Shown piece by piece: positions 16,343-51,415 of a DNA stretch of 51,706 nt. The notes under the pieces are model-generated. The model made no database searches. It saw only the letters and a program-made list of their open reading frames with translations, and was not told where the DNA came from. Made by a program: the position numbers and the translations under genes. The DNA is from Syntrophaceae bacterium UBA2208 (GTDB lineage: Bacteria > Desulfobacterota > BSN033 > UBA1163). Every line of letters starts with the position of its first letter. Position 1 is the first letter of the stretch. The DNA lies in assembly GCA_002327885.1 (NCBI GenBank), contig DCUS01000125.1, positions 1-51,706 of the forward strand, read 5' to 3'.

Positions 16343-16927
16343 CTAAGCCAATTTCTTTTTCAGCCGATAGATTGTTTCAAAAGAATTAAATAGATCAAGA
16401 TATTGCTCAAGGTAAGGGGTAAGCAAAAAATTCTTTCTCGCTGTCTCCTTTGCCTTCTTACCCATTCGGTGCCGGAGTTTTTCATTCTTGATCAATTTGA
16501 TTGTTTTTTCTGATGCCTTCTTTATGGACGAGACTAAAAAACCATTTTCCCCGTTACTGATCTGGCATCGAATTCCACCTACGTTTCCTCCAATCACGGG
16601 GGTCCCTTTCCACATGGCTTCAGCAACTGTCACACCAAAGCCTTCACGGATCGATTTTTGAAGCACAACCGTTGCTTTTCTTTGTAAGGCATTCACCAGC
16701 GCAGTGTCCCGGTGGCTTAGTATGATGATCCGTTCATCGCGGCATTCCAGAAGAGATTCATAAACCTCTGCTCCTTCCGGATCGTCTGTCGCCATATTCC
16801 CAAGCAGAACAAGGGTGCAGTCCACCTCCTTTCTTGCAAGTGTGAATGCTTATATGACCCCTTTCGGGTCTTTCCATCGGTCGAAACGAGAAATTTGCAC
16901 GACCAGAGGGAGATCTGTTGATGGATC
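16343..16927 (-). pseudogene. treT: Trehalose glycosyltransferring synthase (TreT-type GT4) remnant: C-terminal ~190 codons with an in-frame TAA
   Basis: Translating beyond the track ORF gives [51 protein letters not shown]...LQKSIREGFGVTVAEAMWKGTPVIGGNVGGI. This follows the TreT motif order. TAA is at 16850-16852, and the N-terminal GT-B half is absent. Confidence 0.6.
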
Positions 16928-17274
16928 GGGCGCCACTCGTCTCCTTTCAGAGGATCTCTCTTGTCAATCGTCTCTCCAAAGACATTGAACACCCTTCCCA
17001 GCACCCCCTTTCCAACGGGCACCTTTAGAAAATGACCTGTATCGATAACCGCGGATCCCAGAGCCAACCCTTGTGTGGGTGTAAGGGCAATGCCGCGGAC
17101 CGTACTGGAATCGAGATGGTTGATCACTTCGATGATAATGTTTTCGTCACCGCCCGCCCTCAGAACGTTATAGAGAGGCGGAAGACGTTCGGAAAACCTT
17201 ACGTCGACCACACTGCTTCGGACCGAAATGACCGTTCCCCGGTTGGATGGATCAGAAGTTTTTTGACTGTCCAT
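16921..17274 (-). pseudogene. atpD: F1-type ATP synthase beta subunit remnant: N-terminal ~120 codons only
   Basis: GTVISVRSSVVDVRFSE..LPPLYNVL...IIIEVINHLDSSTVRGIALTPTQGLALGSAVIDTGHFLKVPVGKGVLGRVFNVFGETID...WRPIH matches the beta-barrel N-domain of AtpD. Homology stops before the P-loop, at the junction with the treT remnant. Confidence 0.65.
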
Positions 17275-17444
17275 CGATTCATTTCCTTTTTTTGTTCTTG
17301 ATTCGCGCAATACACGGCTTCACTTCGATGATACTATTCGGATCTAAAGAGATGGAAAGCATCTCTGATCGGGAGATACAGATCGCAATCCCCATCCATA
17401 TCAGTAACGTCAAAGGCCGTGACCCTCCATCCCTTTGCCATCCT

Positions 17445-32914: not shown

Positions 32915-33190
32915 TTAATGGATTTCCCATTCTCCATAACGCATACCGTTGCGCAATCTTCCAAATTCGATCTTTTTATTCTTTTCCAGGGCATCCACCA
33001 GTATCTCCGCTTCCAGGAGCGAACACCCCATCTTGTCGTAAAGAAAGCCCCTGAATTCGGTCTTGCCCCGAAGATATGTTTCCCTGAACGGAGAGGCAAA
33101 CCGTTTCAATAGGAGACGGCAAGCCCTGTTGAACTTCCCGACATCCACTCGGGTCTGCGACTCCGCTCTTTTTCGCTTTTTCATGATCAA
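32915..33190 (-). CDS. Hypothetical 91-aa basic protein
   Basis: The ORF start overlaps the stop of the upstream gene (ATGA at 33187-33190), which suggests translational coupling. No family recognised. Confidence 0.4.
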   Translation of the reverse strand: MIMKKRKRAESQTRVDVGKFNRACRLLLKRFASPFRETYLRGKTEFRGFLYDKMGCSLLEAEILVDALEKNKKIEFGRLRNGMRYGEWEIH

Positions 33191-33801
33191 TAACGAAATA
33201 CAGCAGCCAGAGGCGCCTCATCCGGCATCTCCTCCGGCTTCATGGCATACACTGTCACTCCGTTTAAAATCGTGTGAACAGCCGCAAAATCGAGCAGGTC
33301 TTCGTCCCCGAATTCCGGTTCCGCGTGAATATGAATTGTACACTTATCCGGGTCGAAAAAGCCCCATTGCTGGACACCTACAGTCACCCATAGGATATCG
33401 ATTCTTCCCTCACAAGCCGCTGGAACAATTTTCTTCAGGTCCTTTGAAGCCCGCGCACTGCCCGCTAATTGCTTATATTTGGCCATGGCCTCTTCTTGAG
33501 CTTTGAGAAATTGAGGTTCGACAATCCCCCATGCCTGCCCGTGTAATTCTTCCGCCTTCAAGCTCTCTGGGTTTCCCGTAATCCCCTGTTCCAACAAATG
33601 GGGATAGCTGTTGGCTTCCCTGTAAATCGGAAAGAGGTAATCGACTCTGCAGGAAACAAGAAAGGGACGTCCATAACCAAACTGTTTCAGCGCTTCGGTA
33701 CCGGTGGCTTTTCCTGTCAGTTGTTTCACTTCCTCTACATCCACTTCTTTCTGAAATCGATTTTCCAAATATTTCTTAACTTCGGCTAACTCAAAATTCA
33801 T
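33187..33801 (-). CDS. Half-length protein whose C-terminal ~150 aa resemble bacterial eRF1-like (baeRF / host-attachment-type) proteins
   Basis: The C-terminal pattern is ...DYLFPIYREANSYPHLLEQGITGNPESLKAEELHGQAWGIVEPQF...ASKDLKKIVPAACEGRIDILWV...GDEDLLDFAAVHTILNGVTVYAMKPEEMPDEAPLAAVFRY. I recognise this from memory as the family's C-terminal half. The N-terminal ~55 aa are unrelated to that family. Confidence 0.4.
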   Translation of the reverse strand: MNFELAEVKKYLENRFQKEVDVEEVKQLTGKATGTEALKQFGYGRPFLVSCRVDYLFPIYREANSYPHLLEQGITGNPESLKAEELHGQAWGIVEPQFLKAQEEAMAKYKQLAGSARASKDLKKIVPAACEGRIDILWVTVGVQQWGFFDPDKCTIHIHAEPEFGDEDLLDFAAVHTILNGVTVYAMKPEEMPDEAPLAAVFRY

Positions 33802-38704: not shown

Positions 38705-39274
38705 TTAGAGGTCCGAGCGGATCGCCCAAGAGCTCTGAGGGTAAAAACGTTGAAGCTTGATCCACGATTCCTTCAAATCCTCCACGTTGTGCGACTCCAG
38801 ATACTTGCCCACACCGAGGTAGTATAAAGCCGCAGGGGCAAATCCGCTGGTGGGAAATTTCGTGTGAACCTCCTGATAAAATGAAACAGCTTCCTGGTAT
38901 CTCTTTTTTCGCAATGCATAGTGACCAAGGCCCGTTATGAGCATCGCTGCATATTCAGAGGGCGGGAGCCAACCCTCGGTGTGATAGATCACCCGCTTCT
39001 GCCCATCAAGAATATTGAGGTTCGGAGTCCATATGGCGTCAAACTCCTCTACCAGTTTTTCAGCTTCTGCCACATTCACCTGGACAGGAATGAAATACTC
39101 GTTGAGGATCGTGGCAACAGAGAGATCAGGGTACGTCACGGCACCCAGCTTGGTGCACCCTGTTCACCCTTCCTTGAAAAAATCGAGAAGCATCGGCTTC
39201 TTCTCTTTGGAAACCCGTCCCATCCCTTCCTCCATAGACCTCATCCATTTTACCTTTCCTTCAAGTCCTTTCAT
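38705..39274 (-). CDS. Thioredoxin-fold protein with U-x-x-C redox motif (candidate selenoprotein; TGA 39164-39166 read as Sec) and helical TPR-like C-terminus
   Basis: ATG 39274 sits behind AGGAGG. The reading frame runs ...KEKKPMLLDFFKEG-TGA-TGCTKLGAVTYPDLSV... and continues in frame into track ORF 38705-39139. The TGA falls exactly where the first Cys of the thioredoxin CxxC lies. A hairpin follows it. Confidence 0.65.
39127..39162 (-). promoter_or_regulatory. SECIS-like stem-loop 1 nt downstream of the in-frame TGA
   Basis: On the minus strand the sequence is UGA-A-CAGGGU-GCACC-AAGCUG-GGUGC-CGUGACGU-ACCCUG. This gives a 5-bp apical stem with a 6-nt loop containing G and U. It sits on a 6-bp lower stem with an asymmetric bulge. 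Confidence 0.45.
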
Positions 39275-46326: not shown

Positions 46327-46836
46327 CTACTTCAACGGCCCGGTAAAAATGAAATCATTGGTCCTCTTCTTTCCATGGCAATTGATACAGCCTTCGATCT
46401 TTCCTTCTGCTTCAATTTTTCCGTCGGGGGTGTATTTGGCCCAGAACCAATCATTGGCTGCCGGATTGTATCCCGAAACTTTGTACATGACTGTCAATGC
46501 CGCTTATTTCTTGTCTGGCGTATAATTCTCCTTCGCGACGATCGAGCCGGCCGGGAGCATCCCTTTCTTTTCCTGGATGGCCTTGAGTGCTGTGCCGTTG
46601 ACATAGGTGGTGAGCAACGCTCCATGCGGTTCCGTTCCTTTGTAGAGAGCAGTCTTGCCAGGCCACATCTTCCATTTATTTGAATAATCCACCTTTTTCA
46701 AATGGTCCCATAAGGAGGCCCCGGAAGCCTCCACCATCGTGGCTTTTCCTTTCGACATCTTTCCTTTGACTTGGGCCCAAAGAAACCCTGAAAATAGGAA
46801 TACCAGAACGAATAACAGTATGAATAGCTTTTTCAT
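46327..46836 (-). pseudogene. Cytochrome P460-family gene interrupted by an in-frame TAA (46504-46506)
   Basis: The track ORF (110 aa: signal peptide, ...EPHGALLTTYVNG..., ...GSIVAKENYTPDKK) stops at TAA. The same frame continues AALTVMYKVSGYNPAANDWFWAKYTPDGKIEAEGKIEGCINCHGKKRTNDFIFTGPLK*. That stretch carries the CxxCH haem motif expected at the family's C-terminus. Confidence 0.6.
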
Positions 46837-49217: not shown

Positions 49218-50537
49218 ATGTGGCCAGGATTGTCGCGAATCATTCTTCATCTGTTAGCGTTTTGCGCTCCCTTTATCGTAATCATCTTTTTCCACTTCCA
49301 TTCGGACCACGGTCTTCTCTCTGAGATAGCAAAAAACTTTGCCCTTTTAGGGTTTGTGGTCCTCATCCTTCAACCCGTTTTGGGTGGACGGTTCAAGTGG
49401 ATCGAACGGCCTTTCGGTCTCGACATCCTCTTCCGGTACCATAAATACATGGGCGTTTTCGCAGCTTGCCTGCTCTTGATCCACCCTCTCTTGCTTGCAG
49501 CCGGAGGAGGCGGCTTGCACCTGCTTTTCTCCCTCAATGTCCCCTGGTATATCTGGCTGGGAAAGATCGCTTTGTTTCTCCTTCTTGTGAACATCGGCCT
49601 CTCCCTTTACCAGTCAAGCCTGCATCTGAAATTTGAGAAATGGCGTCTTGGTCATGATGCATTAGCAGTTCTGATCATCGTCCTTGCATTCACCCACAGT
49701 TGGTTTGCAGGGCATGATCTGAAGATTCTCCCTATGAAATTTCTATGGGTGATCGCTTTGGGAGCTGCCGCCGTAACGTTCGTTTACCACCGGATCATCA
49801 GGCCCTATCGACTTGGCCGTCATAAATATTCCGTTGCCGATGTTCAGGCCGAGACAAAGAATGTATGGATCGTCAATCTCTCTCCTCCCGAAGGAGAAAA
49901 ACCGTACGATTTCCTGCCAGGCCAATTTCATTTTCTCACTTTTCATCGGGATCGGAACCTGCCCGAAGAAGAGCACCACTGGACCATCTCATCCAGTCCA
50001 ACCCAAAAAGGCTACATAAGTTCCACCATCAAGGAATTGGGCGATTTCACCTCGACCATCGGACAGACCAGACCGGGAGACACGGCAACTGTCCACGGTC
50101 CCTTCGGTCGTTTCTCTTACCTCCTCCATCCCGAAGAGAAAGACCTTGTCTTTATCAGCGGAGGAATTGGGATCACTCCTTTGATGAGCATGCTTCGGCA
50201 TATGCGAGACACACAAAGTACCCTTCCGGTGTTGCTTCTGTATGCCAGCGAGGATGAGGAGGAAGTTATTTTTCGACAAGAACTCTTCGAGATCGAAGCA
50301 GGGGGATTTCCACGCCTGAAGGTGGTTCTCGTCCTGAGTAAGCCCAGAAAGGATTGGAGCGGTGAAAAAGGCTATATTAATCGCAAAATAATTGAAAAAT
50401 ATACCGAGGGACGTATAAAGGGAAAGGGCTTCTATATCTGTGGTCCTCCTGGACTGATTGATCTCACTCTTCGAATCCTCGGAGAACTCGGCGCTCCCGA
50501 TGAGCGTATTCACATAGAGATCTTTTCTTTCCTTTAA
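49218..50537 (+). CDS. NOX/FRE-like membrane flavocytochrome: ferric-reductase-type 6-TM haem domain fused to FNR-like FAD/NAD(P)H-binding domain
   Basis: Two His...His pairs, each separated by 13 residues, sit in predicted helices (HKYMGVFAACLLLIH and HDALAVLIIVLAFTH). FAD motifs are PGQFHFLTF and HHWTISSSP. The NAD(P)H motif is ISGGIGITPLMSML, and the C-terminus has FYICGPPGL. Confidence 0.8.
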   Translation: MWPGLSRIILHLLAFCAPFIVIIFFHFHSDHGLLSEIAKNFALLGFVVLILQPVLGGRFKWIERPFGLDILFRYHKYMGVFAACLLLIHPLLLAAGGGGLHLLFSLNVPWYIWLGKIALFLLLVNIGLSLYQSSLHLKFEKWRLGHDALAVLIIVLAFTHSWFAGHDLKILPMKFLWVIALGAAAVTFVYHRIIRPYRLGRHKYSVADVQAETKNVWIVNLSPPEGEKPYDFLPGQFHFLTFHRDRNLPEEEHHWTISSSPTQKGYISSTIKELGDFTSTIGQTRPGDTATVHGPFGRFSYLLHPEEKDLVFISGGIGITPLMSMLRHMRDTQSTLPVLLLYASEDEEEVIFRQELFEIEAGGFPRLKVVLVLSKPRKDWSGEKGYINRKIIEKYTEGRIKGKGFYICGPPGLIDLTLRILGELGAPDERIHIEIFSFL

Positions 50538-50572: not shown

Positions 50573-50668
50573 ATGCGAAAGAAAAAACTGAATCAAGCAA
50601 CGAGAGTGATCATAGCCATTCTTATCGTTTCTGCGGTCCTTCTGGCCTGCATCCGTATCTATCTTTAG
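50573..50668 (+). CDS. 31-aa single-TM peptide, not in the ORF track
   Basis: GAAGGAG RBS, 7 nt, then ATG. The product is MRKKKLNQATRVIIAILIVSAVLLACIRIYL*. It lies between the NOX-like gene and tpx. Confidence 0.35.
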   Translation: MRKKKLNQATRVIIAILIVSAVLLACIRIYL

Positions 50669-50678
50669 ATACGGATGC
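50649..50678 (+). other. Perfect 12-bp-stem hairpin overlapping the stop of the 31-aa ORF
   Basis: GCATCCGTATCT-atcttt-AGATACGGATGC. No U-tract follows, so it is not a canonical intrinsic terminator. Confidence 0.5.
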
Positions 50679-50797
50679 AGGTGGATACCACAACAACGTT
50701 GCAGTCCACCCGCTGGGAAGATGATGAAGCCAACATAAGAGGGAACAAGGGGTTCAACATCTTGGGAAGACAATACGAAAAAAAAGAGGAGGAAAGC

Positions 50798-51415
50798 ATG
50801 AAGACCAAAATCTGGGTCGTTTTGGGCCTAGCGGCTTTATTGGGAATGGGATGCGTTACAACAAAAAAGATGGAGATGAGTTCAGAGTCCGTTAAGCCAG
50901 GAACCGAGGTCACTTTCAAGGGAACCCCCCACAAGCTACTCGGAGATCCTTTGACAGTAGGAGCTTCCTTGCCCTCAGTCAAGTTGACAGACGCCAGGAC
51001 GATGAAGGACGTCGATCTTTCAGCCGAGCGCGGCTCTGTACTCTTTTTGAGTACCGTCGTCTCCATCGATACTGCGGTGTGAGAAGAACAGACGCACCGC
51101 CTCGGTGAGGCGGTAGATAAACTTCCCAAAGGAATCAAATGGATCACCATCAGCCGGGATACCCCTTTTGCTCAGAGACGGTTTGCTGATGAAGCCGATC
51201 TCGAGGATATCTGGTTTCTGTCTGATTATAAGACGGGGGCGTTTGGACGAGCCACAGGTCTTCTGGTCGATCAACTCATGTTTCTGGCAAGGTCCATCAT
51301 CATCGTCGATCAGCTGGGAAAAGTCCGCTACGTCCAGGTCGTGCCCGAGCTCACCAAACTGCCGGATATGGAAAAAGCTTTTGAGAAGGCACGCCAGCTT
51401 TCAAAAGAGAACTAA
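50798..51415 (+). CDS. tpx: Exported thiol peroxidase (Tpx family) with TGA (51080-51082) at the peroxidatic Cys position: candidate selenoprotein
   Basis: ATG 50798 sits behind AGAGGAGGAAAG, followed by a signal peptide, MKTKIWVVLGLAALLGMGC. The frame reads ...VLFLSTVVSIDTAV-TGA-EEQTHRLGE...ISRDTPFAQRRFADEADL...ARSIIIVDQLGKVRYVQVVPELTKLPDMEKA. It is collinear with E. coli Tpx (PSIDTGVCAA...LPFAQSRFCGAEG...). The 333 nt after the TGA stay open in frame, and a hairpin lies downstream. Confidence 0.7.
51096..51114 (+). promoter_or_regulatory. SECIS-like stem-loop 13 nt downstream of the tpx in-frame TGA
   Basis: ACCGCCU-CGGUG-AGGCGGU is a perfect 7-bp stem whose apical loop contains GGU, at the distance expected for bacterial SECIS elements. 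Confidence 0.5.

Follow-up and report, generated by a model that had tools for sequence, protein, structure and literature searches.

An in-frame UGA codon, probably read as selenocysteine, in a Tpx-like lipoprotein peroxidase gene of Syntrophaceae bacterium UBA2208

The interrupted gene and its orthologues

The stretch of DNA analyzed here (the window; 51,706 nucleotides of contig DCUS01000125.1 from Syntrophaceae bacterium UBA2208) carries on its forward strand a gene for a Tpx-like peroxidase, the reading frame of which is interrupted by TGA at codon 95 and remains open beyond it (Table 1). From the comparisons described below, we consider it very probable that this UGA is recoded as selenocysteine (Sec) and that the gene is an intact gene for a lipoprotein peroxiredoxin. 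The sequence-only reading had reported the TGA, the open frame behind it and three motifs of the Tpx fold in that frame (DxPFAQxRF, ARxxxxxD and VxExxxxPD), and all of these are exact: 110 sense codons lie between the TGA and a TAA in the same frame, and the motifs are present as DTPFAQRRF, ARSIIIVD and VPELTKLPD. The conceptual product has 205 aa, and the peptide spanning codon 95 in the conceptual translation is GSVLFLSTVVSIDTAV-U-EEQTHR. All of the assemblies examined list the gene as a hypothetical protein of 94-127 aa (94 aa in L002 and L003), sometimes accompanied by a stray open reading frame (ORF) of 45 aa. Three other independent assemblies (ENA, Logan/SRA and JGI) contain the gene, including the TGA, with 100% identity, and thus an assembly error is excluded.

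Table 1. Features of the peroxidase gene and of the second TGA-interrupted gene in the window
Feature	Position	Strand	Basis or remark
Shine-Dalgarno sequence GAGGAGG	50786-50792	+	5 nt upstream of the ATG; read from the sequence
Start codon and predicted lipoprotein-type signal peptide, MKTKIWVVLGLAALLGMG-C19	50798-50854	+	lipobox Cys codon 50852-50854; sequence pattern
Coding region, codons 1-94	50798-51079	+	gene callers: 94-aa 'hypothetical protein'
Thr92 codon, Thr of the TxxU/TxxC active-site motif	51071-51073	+	invariant in alignments; matches Thr of SIDTGVC in 2jsy
UGA codon 95, peroxidatic Cys column, proposed Sec codon	51080-51082	+	TGA in 6/6 orthologous lineages
SECIS-type hairpin	51096-51114	+	5' arm 51096-51103, GGU loop 51104-51106, 3' arm 51107-51114
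Coding region, codons 96-205, and TAA stop (51413-51415)	51083-51415	+	rest of the Tpx fold
Ala130, resolving-Cys column	51185-51187	+	Pfam/PDB alignments
Catalytic Arg165	51290-51292	+	Pfam/PDB alignments
Second putative selenoprotein gene, thioredoxin-fold and TPR, UxxC	38705-39273	-	DFFKEG-U-TGC

When the TGA is translated as U, family profiles align across it, as had been expected from the sequence: Pfam Redoxin (66.9 bits, 2.2e-18, residues 54-194) and Pfam AhpC-TSA (PF00578; 50.9 bits, 1.9e-13), both above their cut-offs, as well as the NCBIfam Tpx model. All 18 PDB matches at E <= 1e-10 are Tpx, the best of them being Bacillus subtilis Tpx (2jsy, E=1.9e-29). In the alignment with 2jsy, the peroxidatic Cys (of SIDTGVC) falls on the TGA column, in agreement with the earlier proposal that the TGA replaces the Cys of a SIDTxVC motif, and the resolving Cys (of ARWC) falls on Ala130. 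Thr92, Sec95 and Arg165 are invariant in the alignments. The resolving Cys had been noted as missing, which is correct; its absence had also been called unusual for Tpx, but it is not peculiar to this gene and extends to the lipoprotein Tpx-like subfamily as a whole: all 17 Cys-type relatives in an 18-sequence alignment read RFA at this column. The N-terminus (MKTK, a hydrophobic stretch and LLGMG-C19) looks like a lipoprotein signal peptide, judged by its pattern, and the mature protein predicted after cleavage at Cys19 has no Cys at all. The lipobox of the Sec orthologues is LLGMGC or LMGC with an invariant Cys, and that of the Cys-type relatives is mostly xxGC.

For the search for orthologues, the protein database was queried with the 94-aa N-terminal fragment, which is what a gene caller makes of the TGA-interrupted gene. 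Five short 'hypothetical proteins' were found, with 94, 84, 77, 74 and 70% identity, and all of them end in ...S[IV]DTAV. In the DNA of these five orthologues (loci L004-L013 among those fetched for comparison, which are numbered with L), the TGA is at the same column in every case, and the frame behind it remains intact for about 110 codons; frameshifts or extra stops were found in none of them. Thus, the concern that orthologues might truly end at this position is answered by the five diverged genes. Two further variant contigs, from sediment and soil runs, differ from the window at 14-17 positions and keep both the TGA and the stem of the hairpin described below. By contrast with these Sec forms, the 85 Cys-type homologues with fetched DNA all have TGC (49) or TGT (36) at this column. 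The source metagenomes are of hydrocarbon, freshwater, sediment and soil habitats, and the orthologues come from related uncultured anaerobes.

The ratio of nonsynonymous to synonymous substitution rates (dN/dS, by the method of Nei and Gojobori) is 0.04-0.22 downstream of the TGA, similar to or below the values upstream (0.07-0.26), while dS ranges from 0.14 to more than 2 (saturation). Codon-level conservation beyond position 51082, on which the proposal of read-through depended, is therefore present. The EEQT directly after the UGA is invariant, and purifying selection starts right there. On the opposite strand, an ORF of 161-163 aa (window 50665-51150, corresponding to L001 11938-12429) overlaps the peroxidase gene and was annotated in one assembly; since purifying selection acts on the plus-strand frame, this ORF is probably spurious.

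One other explanation is that the TGA is a nonsense mutation in a recent pseudogene, with a downstream frame that has not yet decayed. A single substitution turns TGC or TGT into TGA, the gene is cut short at this position by gene callers, and the window does contain a real nonsense-interrupted gene (the cytochrome-P460-like gene described below). However, the TGA is kept in six lineages at the dS values and under the downstream constraint given above, no orthologue has accumulated a frameshift or a further stop, and a hairpin that is constrained at synonymous sites co-occurs with the TGA. Chimeric or misassembled copies posing as orthologues are excluded by the protein divergence of 6-30%. 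The probability of the pseudogene explanation is thus negligible, and the earlier judgment that the gene encodes a selenoprotein and is not the product of a nonsense mutation is borne out by the conserved TGA, the selection downstream of it and the hairpin tied to it.

Alternatively, the UGA could be a real stop of a 94-residue lipoprotein; the gene would then be split, with a second start inside it for the downstream part, or that part would owe its conservation to something other than translation in this frame. A 45-codon ORF beginning at ATG 51278 is indeed called as a gene in several assemblies. However, this ATG (Met161) is the first in-frame start past the UGA, purifying selection acts from the UGA on and covers the 65 codons before it, which have no start codon, and no Shine-Dalgarno sequence with a start codon directly follows the UGA. 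As these 65 constrained codons have no in-frame start, they are translated only by read-through of the UGA. Furthermore, in every homologue and in the solved structures, the two halves belong to a single thioredoxin-fold domain. We therefore regard a split gene as very unlikely, and return to read-through of the UGA in considering the sequence that follows it.

The hairpin downstream of the UGA codon

A hairpin resembling the selenocysteine insertion sequence (SECIS) element of bacteria (bSECIS) follows the UGA (Table 1). In the window, it has an 8-bp stem and a GGU triloop, with its first base 13 nt and its loop 21 nt after the UGA; the free energy (dG) is -13.2 kcal/mol and the z-score of the local fold is -2.8. 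The hairpin had been described earlier at the same position and distance, with a stem of 7 bp and a CGGUG loop; the position stands, and the description is equivalent to 8 bp with a GGU loop, the conserved core being 7 bp (51097-51103 paired with 51107-51113). This core, CCGCCUC-GGY-GAGGCGG, is present with the same spacing in 6/6 TGA forms, with stems of 7-10 bp and dG from -11.5 to -21.4 kcal/mol. For example, in L007 the codons CCC (Pro in place of His100) and GGG (codon 106) extend the stem to 10 bp.

For scoring, we re-implemented the published bSECIS criteria (PMC13188914), namely, an apical loop of 3-9 nt with G in its first two positions, an upper stem of 4-16 bp, a distance of 16-37 nt from the UGA to the loop and a minimum free energy of -7.5 kcal/mol or lower. 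The hairpins of all six Sec forms pass every one of them, so that the SECIS check proposed for the region after the UGA came out positive. The window contains 2014 TGA trinucleotides, and behind only 9 of them (0.45%) is there a hairpin of equal stability that passes the same criteria. Rfam at its gathering thresholds gave no match in the window. Among the 85 Cys-type homologues, none has a comparable hairpin at that position, and two have a comparably stable hairpin at other positions and with unrelated sequences. The association of the TGA and the hairpin is significant by Fisher's test (p = 4e-8, uncorrected for shared ancestry).

The codons of the stem also show constraint beyond that on the protein. 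CGC (Arg), CTC (Leu), GAG (Glu) and GCG (Ala) are invariant in 6/6 orthologues, whereas 91 of 111 other conserved amino-acid columns with degenerate codons (82%) show more than one codon among the six orthologues; four invariant codons would be expected by chance with a probability of roughly 0.18^4, or about 0.001. The only base that varies in the core element is the third position of the loop, which is U or C; among the Cys forms, the codons for these Leu, Gly and Glu residues are free to vary.

In a neighbour-joining tree, the Sec forms are monophyletic and nested among the Cys forms. The Sec clade reads H/R/P-R-L-G-E-A-G in the region of the hairpin, where the Cys forms read H-Y-L-G-E-(K/E/Q)-G, and the Cys-type sisters L074 and L065 have TAT CTC GGC GAG CAG, that is, a 3-bp core with a GGC loop. 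The favoured course of events is a single origin of the Sec form from a Cys-type ancestor, in which the SECIS was built outward from the existing Leu-Gly-Glu codons (CUC-GGY-GAG), with the changes Tyr101Arg (CGC) and Gln/Glu105Ala (GCG) adding three G-C pairs on each side. Whether these genes constitute an unrecognised selenoprotein subfamily near its origin, an exported, lipid-anchored '1-Sec' Tpx-like peroxidase with a Cys-free mature form that would depend on a periplasmic reductant, the clade of which records the birth of a SECIS stepwise, is to our judgment an evenly balanced question. The Sec forms, as a tight clade with hundreds of Cys forms around it, offer a clean natural case for what the switch from Cys to Sec buys a peroxiredoxin and, in the same clade, for how a SECIS is assembled inside a conserved coding sequence.

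Genetic code, a second interrupted gene and the gene neighbourhood

The stops of the 31 Pfam-supported genes in the window are TGA in 13, TAA in 10 and TAG in 8 cases. As TGA terminates 13 of the 31 genes, an alternative code with TGA as Trp or Gly was rejected; the code is standard, and read-through at codon 95 is site-specific recoding.

A scan of the whole window for in-frame TGA with an open frame on both sides found a second gene, on the minus strand, with ATG at 39273, UGA at 39166-39164 and a stop at 38707-38705. Pfam Thioredoxin_2 aligns across its TGA. A hairpin follows, composed of GGGUGC (39146-39141), the loop CGUGAC (39140-39135) and GUACCC (39134-39129). About 80 of 86 relatives are fragments of 138-148 residues that start just past the TGA column, and 2 of the 86 are full-length Cys forms. 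In two diverged members, L020 and L021, a Met-initiated extension of about 40 residues precedes the TGA, which stands at the same column; the 18-nt hairpin, 23 nt past the UGA, is identical in these two and the second gene. None of the curated NCBIfam selenoprotein models covers the second gene (best score 30 bits). With two conserved genes having TGA and a SECIS within 12 kb, it is very likely, as judged from these sequences, that the source organism decodes Sec.

In the whole-window scans for in-frame TGA, only the peroxidase gene and the second gene were credible. A TGA candidate at 46494-46496 (minus strand) was rejected, being out of frame with its gene, which is broken by a TAA. This is the cytochrome-P460-like gene at 46327-46836 (minus strand), which has a signal peptide at its 5' end, a CINCH haem motif near 46380 and an in-frame TAA at 46506-46504; unlike the two TGA genes, it looks like an ordinary nonsense mutation or pseudogene.

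Several observations weigh against the assignment of the peroxidase gene as a Tpx-type selenoprotein gene. On the NCBIfam Tpx model (NF001808), the window protein scores 112.6 bits and the L007 protein 111.9 bits, under the curated equivalog cut-off of 123; the Cys-type lipoprotein relatives score 120.6-122.1 bits, so that the whole lipoprotein clade lies just under it. The Pro of the canonical motif PxxxTxxC/U is Val88 here, and among the Cys-type relatives this position varies between P, A, V and T. The Sec form was not found in 185,579 GTDB species genomes, and a related-locus search of GTDB representative contigs gave three loci, all of Cys type. A degenerate DNA pattern for DTxV-TGA-ExQTHxLG, which matches the window, had no matches in the genome and metagenome contig collections, because these collections lack the relevant samples; furthermore, two orthologues have Arg or Pro for His100. 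As for the hairpin, compensatory covariation is nearly absent, in that the core pairs never vary and one pair shows a two-sided change; since the core stem is invariant, this test is uninformative. The association of the TGA and the hairpin represents one evolutionary origin only, and thus the case for the SECIS rests on maintenance and not on independent recurrence. Finally, selA, selB, selD and tRNA-Sec were found neither in the window nor in the fetched loci, which cover only parts of genomes, and a scan with ARAGORN found no tRNA-Sec in the window or 14 loci.

The last of these observations also bears on a further possibility, namely, that the UGA is read through with a standard residue (for example, Trp, Cys or Arg by a near-cognate tRNA) and the hairpin is a generic stimulator of read-through. 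The inserted residue is assigned here from sequence and not chemically, which leaves room for this reading together with the missing Sec machinery on the one contig and the fetched loci. However, the UGA coincides exactly with the catalytic Cys, a position at which peroxidase chemistry is supported by Cys or Sec only, and the hairpin fits the SelB-type bSECIS model in its GGU loop and its spacing. If the residue were Cys, a TGC or TGT codon, as used by all 85 relatives, would serve far more efficiently. Furthermore, the second gene on the contig has UGA at the first Cys of CxxC and its own conserved hairpin, the classic pattern of Sec and Cys exchange. Insertion of a standard residue therefore has only a slim chance of being correct, and we take insertion of Sec at codon 95 as the preferred reading in what follows.

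The surroundings of the peroxidase gene vary. A gene for a 131-residue superoxide reductase (neelaredoxin-type) is directly upstream in L001, L004-6 and L011, and is downstream on the opposite strand in L007-10; it is directly upstream in four of the five lineages with a visible flank. A gene for a Cu/Zn superoxide dismutase (SodC) with the lipobox LLSTC follows the peroxidase gene in L001, L003 and L004-6. These neighbours fit a role in oxygen defence, that is, the removal of peroxide when an anaerobe meets oxygen, and SodC making H2O2 beside a tethered peroxidase suggests a coherent pair in a periplasm-facing detoxification chain.

The superoxide reductase gene is absent upstream of the peroxidase gene in the window, L002 and L003. 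It corresponds to a 493-bp presence/absence polymorphism (window 50783-50785 versus L001 11569-12061), for which the window appears to be the deletion variant. Similarly, about 1.1 kb with the SodC gene is missing in L002 (compare L001 12995-14095 and L003 3014-3571). The window contig ends at 51706, about 10 nt short of the breakpoint of this region, and strain variation probably broke the assembly there. In the window, the peroxidase gene is preceded at a distance of 261 bp by a NOX-like gene (49218-50537, plus strand), which encodes a ferric-reductase transmembrane domain fused to an FNR-type FAD/NAD(P)-binding module and the product of which could pass electrons across the membrane; in the orthologous loci, this gene does not lie beside the peroxidase gene.

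Elsewhere in the window, a gene at 33187-33801 (minus strand) encodes a 204-aa protein matching baeRF_family3 (2e-21), a bacterial archaeo-eukaryotic release factor-like family of poorly understood function. At 16343-17310 (minus strand), overlapping ORFs of 160 aa (the C-terminal half only of a GT1 glycosyltransferase) and 197 aa (with an odd ATP-synt_ab_N match) may together represent one gene that is frameshifted or fused. For single window proteins, the nearest named relatives are from metagenome-assembled genomes of Syntrophales, Nitrospirota, 'Deltaproteobacteria' and Desulfobacterales.

Proposed mechanism and comparison with known systems

If the UGA is decoded as Sec, SelB with Sec-tRNA(Sec) would bind the hairpin 13 nt past the UGA and deliver Sec to this codon, and the ribosome would go on through the 110 codons without termination. 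The product would then be exported, cleaved at the signal peptide and lipidated at Cys19. With Thr92 and Arg165 as its partners, Sec95 would act on H2O2 or organic hydroperoxides, reducing them and being converted to a selenenic acid, which an external reductant would recycle in a mechanism of the 1-Cys type, here '1-Sec'. As the mature protein has no Cys, Sec95 would be its sole redox-active residue, and with Ala at the resolving-Cys column the cycle would be confined to one residue and need an external reductant.

Knowledge of Sec-peroxiredoxins dates from 2001, and catalogues of prokaryotic selenoproteins hold more than 110 families; for a specialist, the present finding is therefore useful rather than surprising. 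The gene is very probably a genuine selenoprotein gene, previously unannotated, that joins the known Sec-peroxiredoxins. Naming both TGA genes as selenoprotein genes would correct their annotation and mark an uncultured anaerobe lineage as a user of Sec, and the peroxidase would add a Tpx-like, membrane-tethered, Sec-only enzyme to the selenium-dependent defences against peroxide. Among the papers searched, none gave a description of a Sec form of the lipoprotein Tpx-like clade.

The second gene resembles the UxxC thioredoxin-like selenoproteins (PF13098; Table 1 of PMC13188914) in its Thioredoxin_2 domain, in the wide distribution of TGA forms and in the rarity of Cys forms; it differs from that class in a C-terminal TPR-like extension and in having no signal peptide.

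As for the peroxidase, the window gene falls under the definition of a Sec-peroxiredoxin (Prx, TxxU). An experimentally verified member is PrxU of Eubacterium acidaminophilum, with TxxU (Sohling et al. 2001, as given in Table 1 of PMC13188914); PrxU and the representative WP_011365628.1 were compared with the window protein by description only. In common with the Sec-peroxiredoxins (PF00578), the window protein has a thioredoxin fold with Sec in place of the peroxidatic Cys in T-x-x-U (here T92-A-V-U95), an in-frame bacterial SECIS hairpin after the UGA, and abundant Cys homologues. Unlike that class, it belongs to a Tpx-like branch and has a predicted lipoprotein signal and a Cys-free mature form, and it departs from the motif PxxxTxxU of the review (PMC13188914) by Val for Pro.

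Prx-SUH (NF045827) is another Tpx-related selenoprotein family, for which the review gives the Sec motif CxxU (Haft & Tolstoy 2025, cited in PMC13188914). The window protein is likewise related to Tpx and aligns over nearly the full length of the model. However, it scores 85.4 bits against a cut-off of 298, with the Cys-type relatives at 87-100, and it has T-A-V-U with no Cys nearby. Membership in Prx-SUH was thus rejected on the NCBIfam score, which is far under the cut-off, and on the motif as it is stated in the review.

With canonical Tpx of Escherichia coli and B. subtilis (2jsy, 3p7x and 1qxh), the window protein shares the fold, the motif S-I-D-T-x-V-[C/U], the conserved catalytic Thr and Arg and about 35-40% identity over 166 residues. 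Unlike canonical Tpx, it would have Sec for the peroxidatic Cys, an N-terminal lipoprotein signal with a linker of about 35 residues, and Ala for the resolving Cys (C95 in E. coli and C94 in B. subtilis); with this Ala, the atypical 2-Cys mechanism with its intramolecular disulfide is impossible. This peroxidase is thus distinguished by its predicted lipoprotein anchor, by Sec as its proposed sole redox-active residue and by a young SECIS with a traceable origin.

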